From the NCBI RefSeq assembly GCF_017348835.2, contig NZ_CP071375.1: a stretch of DNA of 64,000 nucleotides; one strand, 5' to 3'. Source of the stretch: Escherichia coli (GTDB lineage: Bacteria > Pseudomonadota > Gammaproteobacteria > Enterobacterales > Enterobacteriaceae). The notes beneath the pieces are model-generated. The model did no database searches. It was not told where the DNA came from and saw nothing but the letters and a program-made list of their open reading frames with translations. Of this stretch, positions 35,883 to 36,758 are shown in pieces. A program made the translations under genes and the position numbers. Within the stretch, counting starts at the first letter, position 1. Every line of letters starts with the position of its first letter.

Positions 35883-36758
35883 TTAACGAGTTACCGCTTC
35901 GTTTTCTTTATTTTCTTTCACCCGCTTAAAGTTCACATCCATTTGCGGGTACGGGAAGCTGATACCGGCGGCATCAAATTCACGTTTAATACGCTCCAGC
36001 ACATCCCAGTACACGTTTTGCAGATCGCCACTGTTGCTCCAGACGCGGACCACGAAATTAATCGACGATGCACCAAGTTCGTTCAGGCGCACAGTCATTT
36101 CGCGATCTTTCAAAATGCGATCTTCAGACTGGATAATATTGGTCAGGATCTGCTTAACCTGATCGATATCGGAATCATACGCCACGCCAATAATAAATTC
36201 GTTACGGCGAACTGGCTCGCGGGAGAAGTTAATAATATTTCCGGCAATAATTTTACCGTTCGGAATAACGATAATTTTACCGTCTGCAGTACGCATGGTG
36301 GTGGAGAAAATCTGCACACTCAGCAAAGTACCGGCTACGCCGCCGAGGTCAACATATTCTCCGGCACGGAACGGGCGGAACATGACAAGTAACACGCCAG
36401 CGGCCAGGTTAGACAGTGACCCCTGCAAAGCCAGACCAACAGCTAAGCCTGCGGCACCGAGTACAGCAATGACGGACGCGGTTTGTACACCCACGCGTCC
36501 CAGTGCAGCGATTAGCGTAAAGGCGATAATACCGTAACGGACTAATGCAGAAAGAAAATCAGCAACAGTGGCATCGATTTTACGGGAGATCATCAGGCGA
36601 TTCACCGCGTTGGAAATCATCCGCGCGATAATCAAACCAACGATGATGATCGCGAGTGCCGCCACGATGTTTACTGCATAACTTAGCAGCAGCGCCTGGT
36701 TAGCCACCAGCCAGCTTCCCGCGCCGTTTATGCTATCGACAACATTCAAATCTTCCAT
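35883..36758 (-). CDS. mscS: small-conductance mechanosensitive channel MscS
   Basis: 291 aa; body matches remembered MscS, extreme C-terminus reads ...[16 protein letters not shown]. Confidence 0.9.

Follow-up and report, generated by a model that had tools for sequence, protein, structure and literature searches.

The closest described counterpart of the protein considered here is MscS of Escherichia coli K-12 (YggB, b2924; PDB 2OAU, 6RLD, and others), the product of the same gene at the same locus. In MG1655, mscS (b2924) comprises 861 bp and encodes 286 residues with the C-terminus ...KRVKEDKAA; the same K-12 3' end, GAAGACAAAGCTGCGTAA, with the stop at position 287, is seen in a published primer (PMC4440785). 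Residues 266–286 constitute the C-terminal beta-barrel region, and MscS with these residues deleted is still partly protective (PMC4440785). Constructs with His6 at the C-terminus are routinely used, and a bulky YFP at the C-terminus alters the MscS–FtsZ behaviour, so that this end is not completely inert (PMC4440785).

The window, that is, the whole stretch of 64,000 nucleotides of E. coli DNA analysed here, carries a 291-residue allele of this gene. Two other kinds of described system bear on its surroundings. Presence/absence or replacement polymorphisms between core genes likewise consist of two non-alignable forms with recombining flanks, and here, as in such polymorphisms, the variable part coalesces deeper than its flanks. 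Unlike in such polymorphisms, however, the edge lies inside a coding sequence, so that the two forms differ in both the C-terminus and the 3' hairpin that they carry. TRAP (DctP) systems are represented in the window by a gene that matches the family models PF03480 and NF037995 but stands without adjacent DctQ/DctM.

The 291-residue MscS allele and the edge of K-12 homology

The mscS gene of the window (35883–36758, minus strand) was recognised by its ORF, the RefSeq annotation, family models, and PDB chains. Its product contains four Pfam domains (PF21082, PF00924, PF05552, and PF21088), all above their gathering scores, and scores 619 bits against NCBIfam PRK10334 (NF007662; cut-off, 321). 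The PDB chains of E. coli MscS align with residues 1–284 at E = 1e-175 with two substitutions, V145L and D283N, and Leu105 and Leu109 (L105 and L109) of the pore helix TM3 are invariant in an alignment of 20 sequences. Apart from these two substitutions, residues 1–284 are those of K-12 MscS, and the Pfam domains and L105/L109 are common to both proteins; the K-12 protein, however, has 286 residues ending in AA, whereas that of the window has 291 ending in ENEAVTR. The original prediction, made from the letters of the window, had stated this length and a tail unlike that of the 286-residue K-12 protein, and comparison of the ORF with MG1655 b2924 confirmed it.

The protein is identical to WP_153645512.1 of strain PE164, with DNA 100% identical over 3.5 kb. 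The exact 291-residue sequence occurs on 15 contigs and in RefSeq, and its NCBI and UniRef entries carry the name MscS; this variant is thus already catalogued. WP_000389820.1 also has 291 residues, and its gene encodes the same last residues as the window allele; its strain, however, lacks the 309-residue protein gene described below, and the signal-peptide region of the DctP-like protein is unlike that of the window. The 291-residue MscS is ordinary strain variation, a minor allele where an old indel polymorphism has its boundary.

A pairwise comparison with K-12 showed that the C-termini differ and that codon 284 is the last homologous one. By BLAST and global alignment, K-12 homology of mscS reaches this codon, with the edge at window position 35906/35907, and a junction query matched K-12-type genomes only from position 35906 onward. 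Two blocks found by blastn are collinear with MG1655, namely, 24499–33712 with locus positions 10698–19911 (98.6% identity) and 35906–40864 with 19956–24913 (99.0% identity). Codons GTG AAA GAA (V280, K281, and E282) are identical in the window and K-12, codon 283 (35910–35912, minus strand) is AAT (Asn) in the window and GAC (Asp) in K-12, and codon 284 is AAA in both. Beyond it, codon comparison revealed an allele-specific tail of codons 285–291 (E N E A V T R) plus the stop (35883–35906, minus strand): the window reads GAA AAC GAA GCG GTA ACT CGT TAA and continues into the hairpin GCGCCCATGAAATTCATGGGCGC, and K-12 reads GCT GCG TAA, followed by the hairpin GAGGCCAGA...TCTGGCCTC and a T-rich tract.

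Codon 283 encodes Asn in all long-tail alleles and also in the short-tailed Escherichia sp. E1V33 (AAC; ...KENKAA). Thus, D283N lies just inside the homologous part and does not belong to the edge, and the real edge falls after codon 284. The expectation that an indel boundary would lie within the final mscS codons was thereby borne out. A one-base frameshift of the K-12 stop (GCG TAA to GCG GTA A..) was considered as the source of the tail and rejected, since distant lineages keep the tail in frame and the DNA beyond it bears no relation to that of K-12.

The segment between argO and mscS

The segment without a K-12 counterpart, delimited by the blastn blocks and fine alignment, extends over about 2.19 kb (33713–35905) and holds the 309-residue protein gene, the DctP-like gene, a hairpin spacer, and the last seven mscS codons with the stop. 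In its place, K-12 has about 42–44 bp of unrelated DNA with two codons, a stop, and a terminator hairpin, so that one stretch replaces the other instead of being simply inserted. The conserved left flank is argO (32975–33610, minus strand; identified by its ORF and RefSeq annotation). The adjoining intergenic DNA (33611–33712) is K-12-homologous, with an identity of about 73–76% as compared with 96–99% in the flanking genes. In one contig labelled E. fergusonii (L085), the first ~75 nt of the argO spacer are those of K-12 and the remaining locus is of the long form, an arrangement that points to mosaic recombination.

The DctP-like gene (34798–35841, plus strand) encodes an orphan TRAP substrate-binding protein of 347 residues and is convergent with mscS, the two stops being 41 bp apart. 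The protein scores 73.3 bits against PF03480 (cut-off, 23.4) and 62.4 bits against NF037995 (cut-off, 50), and 21.6 bits against TIGR00787 (dctP), far under the cut-off of 175; by its profile matches, it qualifies as a family 7 extracytoplasmic solute-binding protein. No DctQ or DctM membrane gene stands beside it, the neighbours being argO, the 309-residue protein gene, and mscS, and the same holds for the related loci. With dN/dS values of 0.11–0.17, the gene is under purifying selection.

The gene for the 309-residue hypothetical protein (33814–34743, plus strand; hereafter designated hyp309) is present only in the longest haplotype, found in 57 complete E. coli genomes. Searches with its product gave nothing in Pfam (even at E ≤ 10), NCBIfam, or PADLOC, and a sole, non-significant PDB match (E = 0.38); homologues in E. 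marmotae and E. fergusonii are annotated as hypothetical. Where hyp309 is present, the downstream DctP-like gene has a different signal-peptide region.

An imperfect palindrome (35836–35888) lies between the dctP-like gene and mscS, and its outer arms, CGTTAA/TTAACG, include both stop codons. Its G+C-rich core (35851–35873) is a stem-loop with a stem of about 10 bp. The predicted RNA folds have free energies of −24.3 kcal/mol on the mscS strand and −24.5 kcal/mol on the dctP strand, with z-scores of −5.7 and −4.5, respectively. Other Escherichia species and UBA5654 retain the hairpin, which in UBA5654 shows one compensatory change of a T–A to a C–G pair. Directly after the 35851–35873 stem, a T-rich tract is absent, the post-stem sequences being ACTACCAATTT and TTCACATGATT; because no T-run follows the stem, a consensus terminator scan did not flag the palindrome. 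Probably, the palindrome represents a bidirectional 3' hairpin common to the dctP-like gene and mscS, and we infer that it would terminate or stabilise both transcripts. K-12 mscS, by contrast, has its own 3' hairpin followed by a T-rich tract. Since the hairpins of the two forms differ, a small effect on mRNA 3'-end formation is possible.

The segment edges also bear an 11-nt perfect inverted repeat (33709–33719 and 35898–35908; AAGAAAACGAA / TTCGTTTTCTT). Its interpretation as a terminal inverted repeat was rejected, because it is absent or degenerate in E. coli carrying the dctP-like gene only and does not co-vary with the tail in E. fergusonii; it is judged to be a chance match in A-rich sequence.

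Distribution of the two forms

Frequencies were determined among 5,426 complete E. coli genomes, 5,425 of which gave any match to the region. The K-12 junction was found in 5,207 genomes, and the long junction, identical or near-identical, in 214; the dctP-like gene was present in 216 and the form containing hyp309 in 57. Four of the 5,425 matching genomes fell outside either junction class, and two of the 216 dctP-positive genomes were without an assigned class. The counts of 214 and 216 show that the long tail and the dctP-like gene are almost completely linked, as a minority of ~4%. Three arrangements were distinguished from RefSeq annotation: the K-12 type with an empty argO–mscS gap and a 286-residue MscS (e.g., PG20180172, O16:H48, K-12-type), a type with only the dctP-like gene in the gap and a 291-residue MscS (e.g., SW070912), and the longest form with hyp309 and the dctP-like gene in the gap and a 291-residue MscS (e.g., PE164).

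Beyond E. coli, carriers of the long form are E. fergusonii, E. marmotae, E. whittamii, SCPM-O-B-8794 (which the genome collection treats as a species of its own), and UBA5654, a more distant lineage of the Enterobacteriaceae. E. whittamii and SCPM-O-B-8794 have the tail KENKE[R/S]EAVTR, the same hairpin, and a dctP-like gene. The E. fergusonii and E. marmotae loci are contigs carrying hyp309 proteins, with species names as in the sources; those labelled E. fergusonii encode a 291-residue MscS ending in KENKESEAVTR, and those labelled E. marmotae one of 291 residues ending in KENKESDAVTR. In UBA5654, the tail reads ...HEKKEDEAVAPR, and the DctP-like protein is 82% identical and MscS only 84% identical. 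In the other Escherichia, nucleotide identity is 89–95% for the dctP-like gene and 86–93% for the tail with the hairpin.

The codons at the end of the tail are GTA ACT CGT in the window, GTA ACA CGT in E. fergusonii and E. whittamii, GTA ACG CGT in E. marmotae, and GTC ACC CGA in a Pluralibacter MAG. The final codons thus vary only synonymously between species, which indicates that the tail is a real, inherited coding end. The dctP-like gene is decayed in E. fergusonii (L085/L086, about 4985–6028), where an in-frame nonsense mutation leaves 121 + 243 residues, and in E. marmotae (L088/L089, 4985–5869), where a 3' truncation leaves 294 residues; the 291-residue MscS tail is retained in both species despite this decay.

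The short form is likewise not confined to E. coli, being present in the non-coli Escherichia E1V33 and E69; the tails of Salmonella and Citrobacter are short as well and end in ...AAE. Since both forms are found across species, each either predates the species splits or has crossed species. From its distribution and divergence, the long form is regarded as old. The K-12 state may be the derived one (deleted or replaced).

Of 80 species loci, 12 have a dctP-like gene that lies between mscS and argO and converges on mscS, and one more has a remnant; none of the scanned loci bore the name of E. albertii, E. fergusonii, or Salmonella, and the Salmonella tails are from protein sequences without locus context. 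The orphan gene occupies the mscS–argO slot in loci L015, L017, L045, L049, L062, L068, L078, L080, and L081, and its carriers include at least seven other genera, among them Citrobacter, Klebsiella, Kluyvera, Lelliottia, and Silvania. Between types, the DctP-like alleles in the slot are 55–68% identical in amino acid sequence. In Citrobacter sp. FP75 and C. braakii, MscS is 97% and ArgO 99% identical, as against 57% for the DctP-like protein, and the corresponding values for C. braakii and Lelliottia are 88%, 94%, and 80%. It may be tentatively suggested, as a reading that we hold to be somewhat doubtful, that argO–mscS is a family-wide slot in which diverged DctP-like alleles are exchanged via recombination in the flanks, dragging along the MscS tail and the hairpin. 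If this is true, the binding protein would be under diversifying or niche-specific selection, and the MscS tail would be a hitch-hiking marker of the cassette type. An orphan TRAP binding-protein slot that is incongruent with its flanks across genera is of mild interest for accessory-gene evolution. In line with such a slot, some tail types follow the DctP-like type from one genus to another, as do the ...Q[T/D/S]E[S/A]A endings of Kluyvera genomosp. 1, RIT691, and Citrobacter sp. 18056.

Origin of the longer tail and its consequence

Among 77 distinct MscS sequences of Enterobacteriaceae, column entropy does not exceed 1.8 bits as far as residue 282 and then rises to 2.3–3.3 bits at residues 283–286, and the length varies from 284 to 295 residues. 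For the mscS body, dS between the window and K-12 is 0.019, and that between the window and the long-form strain SW070912 is 0.044; for the dctP-like gene, dS between the window and SW070912 is 0.126. The mscS body of the window is thus nearer to that of K-12 than to that of SW070912, indicating that the body recombines across the forms and the cassette does not. We therefore consider it very probable that the argO–mscS spacer carries an old polymorphism of two forms and that the MscS C-terminus of the window is its coding edge. The long form consists of the linked dctP-like gene (here together with hyp309), the hairpin, and its own last seven mscS codons (...K284-ENEAVTR*), and the short form, which K-12 shares with ~96% of E. 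coli, of ~42–44 bp with AA* and then its own terminator hairpin. Past codon 284, the forms are non-alignable, and so cannot recombine there; upstream of this codon, the mscS body is freely exchanged within E. coli and remains almost identical between the forms. The edge coincides with the end of selection on the MscS protein, which is hypervariable from residue 283 onward, the tail behaving in effect as linked intergenic DNA. The locus thus offers a small, clean example of a haplotype edge that falls exactly at the end of protein constraint. It also calls for caution in annotation: the last codons of a gene can belong to a neighbouring presence/absence polymorphism, and the K-12 length is not the norm for every strain.

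A different origin, in which a recent, horizontally acquired island overwrote the last mscS codons of a K-12-like ancestor, would agree with the absence of the segment from ~96% of E. coli genomes, with its G+C content of 0.37–0.48, somewhat under that of the flanks (about 0.50–0.52), and with the DctP-like identities, whose incongruence with the flanks across genera indicates that the cassette moves horizontally over long time scales. Nevertheless, K-12 has 42–44 bp of its own unrelated sequence at this position, that is, no empty site left by clean excision; four further species or lineages of Escherichia share the arrangement at a divergence typical of species-level separation; and a dctP-like gene occupies the same slot in the same orientation in at least seven other genera. 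No integrase, transposase, or other mobility gene was recognised in the segment with Pfam, NCBIfam, and PADLOC, no tRNA gene was found in window positions 28000–42000, and no direct repeat spans both segment edges. We regard such a recent acquisition as unlikely, and the comparisons do not support the designation of the segment as a recently inserted island. Of the original prediction on this point, the statement that a DctP-like gene adjoins the 3' end of mscS holds, with the stops 41 bp apart; its view of that DNA as an inserted island is wrong or at any rate unsupported, the segment being better explained as an old replacement without marks of mobility. As for an artefact, that is, a sequencing or assembly error or a private frameshift through the normal stop, the codons GCG GTA ACT taken alone do resemble K-12 GCG TAA T with one extra G. 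The junction, however, is present in 214 independent complete genomes and the exact protein on 15 contigs and in RefSeq, the tail keeps its reading frame in further species and genera, and the DNA beyond it is wholly unlike that of K-12; an error of this kind is thereby ruled out.

It might also be supposed that the longer tail is adaptive, tuning MscS (recovery from inactivation, stability of the barrel, or the contact with FtsZ) or coupling the channel to the binding protein. Several species have retained the ...EAVTR ending although its codons differ synonymously, and the ending persists where the dctP-like gene is decayed (E. fergusonii and E. marmotae) or absent (the Pluralibacter MAG), and the C-terminal barrel region affects inactivation and FtsZ-related phenotypes (PMC4440785). 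On the other side, the part from residue 283 onward is the least conserved in MscS and shifts in length by tandem duplications and indels, 96% of E. coli are without the tail, C-terminal tags are routinely tolerated, and a stretch of only three to five codons provides a weak conservation signal. An adaptive role thus seems quite improbable. Under the preferred reading of the tail as the edge of an old two-form polymorphism, the hypervariability of MscS from residue 283 onward indicates that the five-residue extension is most likely neutral for the channel, and channel biology would be little affected, as the changed residues belong to the region of MscS that varies most. Deposited MscS chains of 292–294 residues align over residues 1–284 from the first residue, which is consistent with C-terminal tags. 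The crystal structure 2OAU presumably resolves residues 27–280, so that the variable tail residues would lie beyond the ordered part. In an AlphaFold2 monomer model of MscS, the mean pLDDT is 56, with values below 50 over long stretches and not in the tail alone.

A further kind of tail change was observed in Enterobacter sp. R1(2018) (L072), whose 295-residue MscS ends in ...KRVKDGKDVKDGKEPAQE with a short tandem duplication (KDGKDVKDGKE); this clear duplication shows that the MscS tail also evolves by slippage.

Three other stretches of the window are absent from K-12. One of ~0.9 kb between speB and speA (53960–54896) contains an ORF of 243 residues without a Pfam match (54019–54750, minus strand). 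Another of ~3.1 kb near argP (21385–24499) contains genes for a LysR-type regulator (21193–22089, minus strand), a flavodoxin-like/FMN reductase protein (22190–22819, plus strand), and a ferric-reductase-like membrane oxidoreductase with FAD and NAD domains (23159–24484, plus strand). The third, of ~3.3 kb between epd and yggC (40864–44132), carries genes for a PCC-domain protein, an ECF-type substrate-specific component, a CbiQ-like T component, and two ABC ATPases (41015–44091, plus strand).
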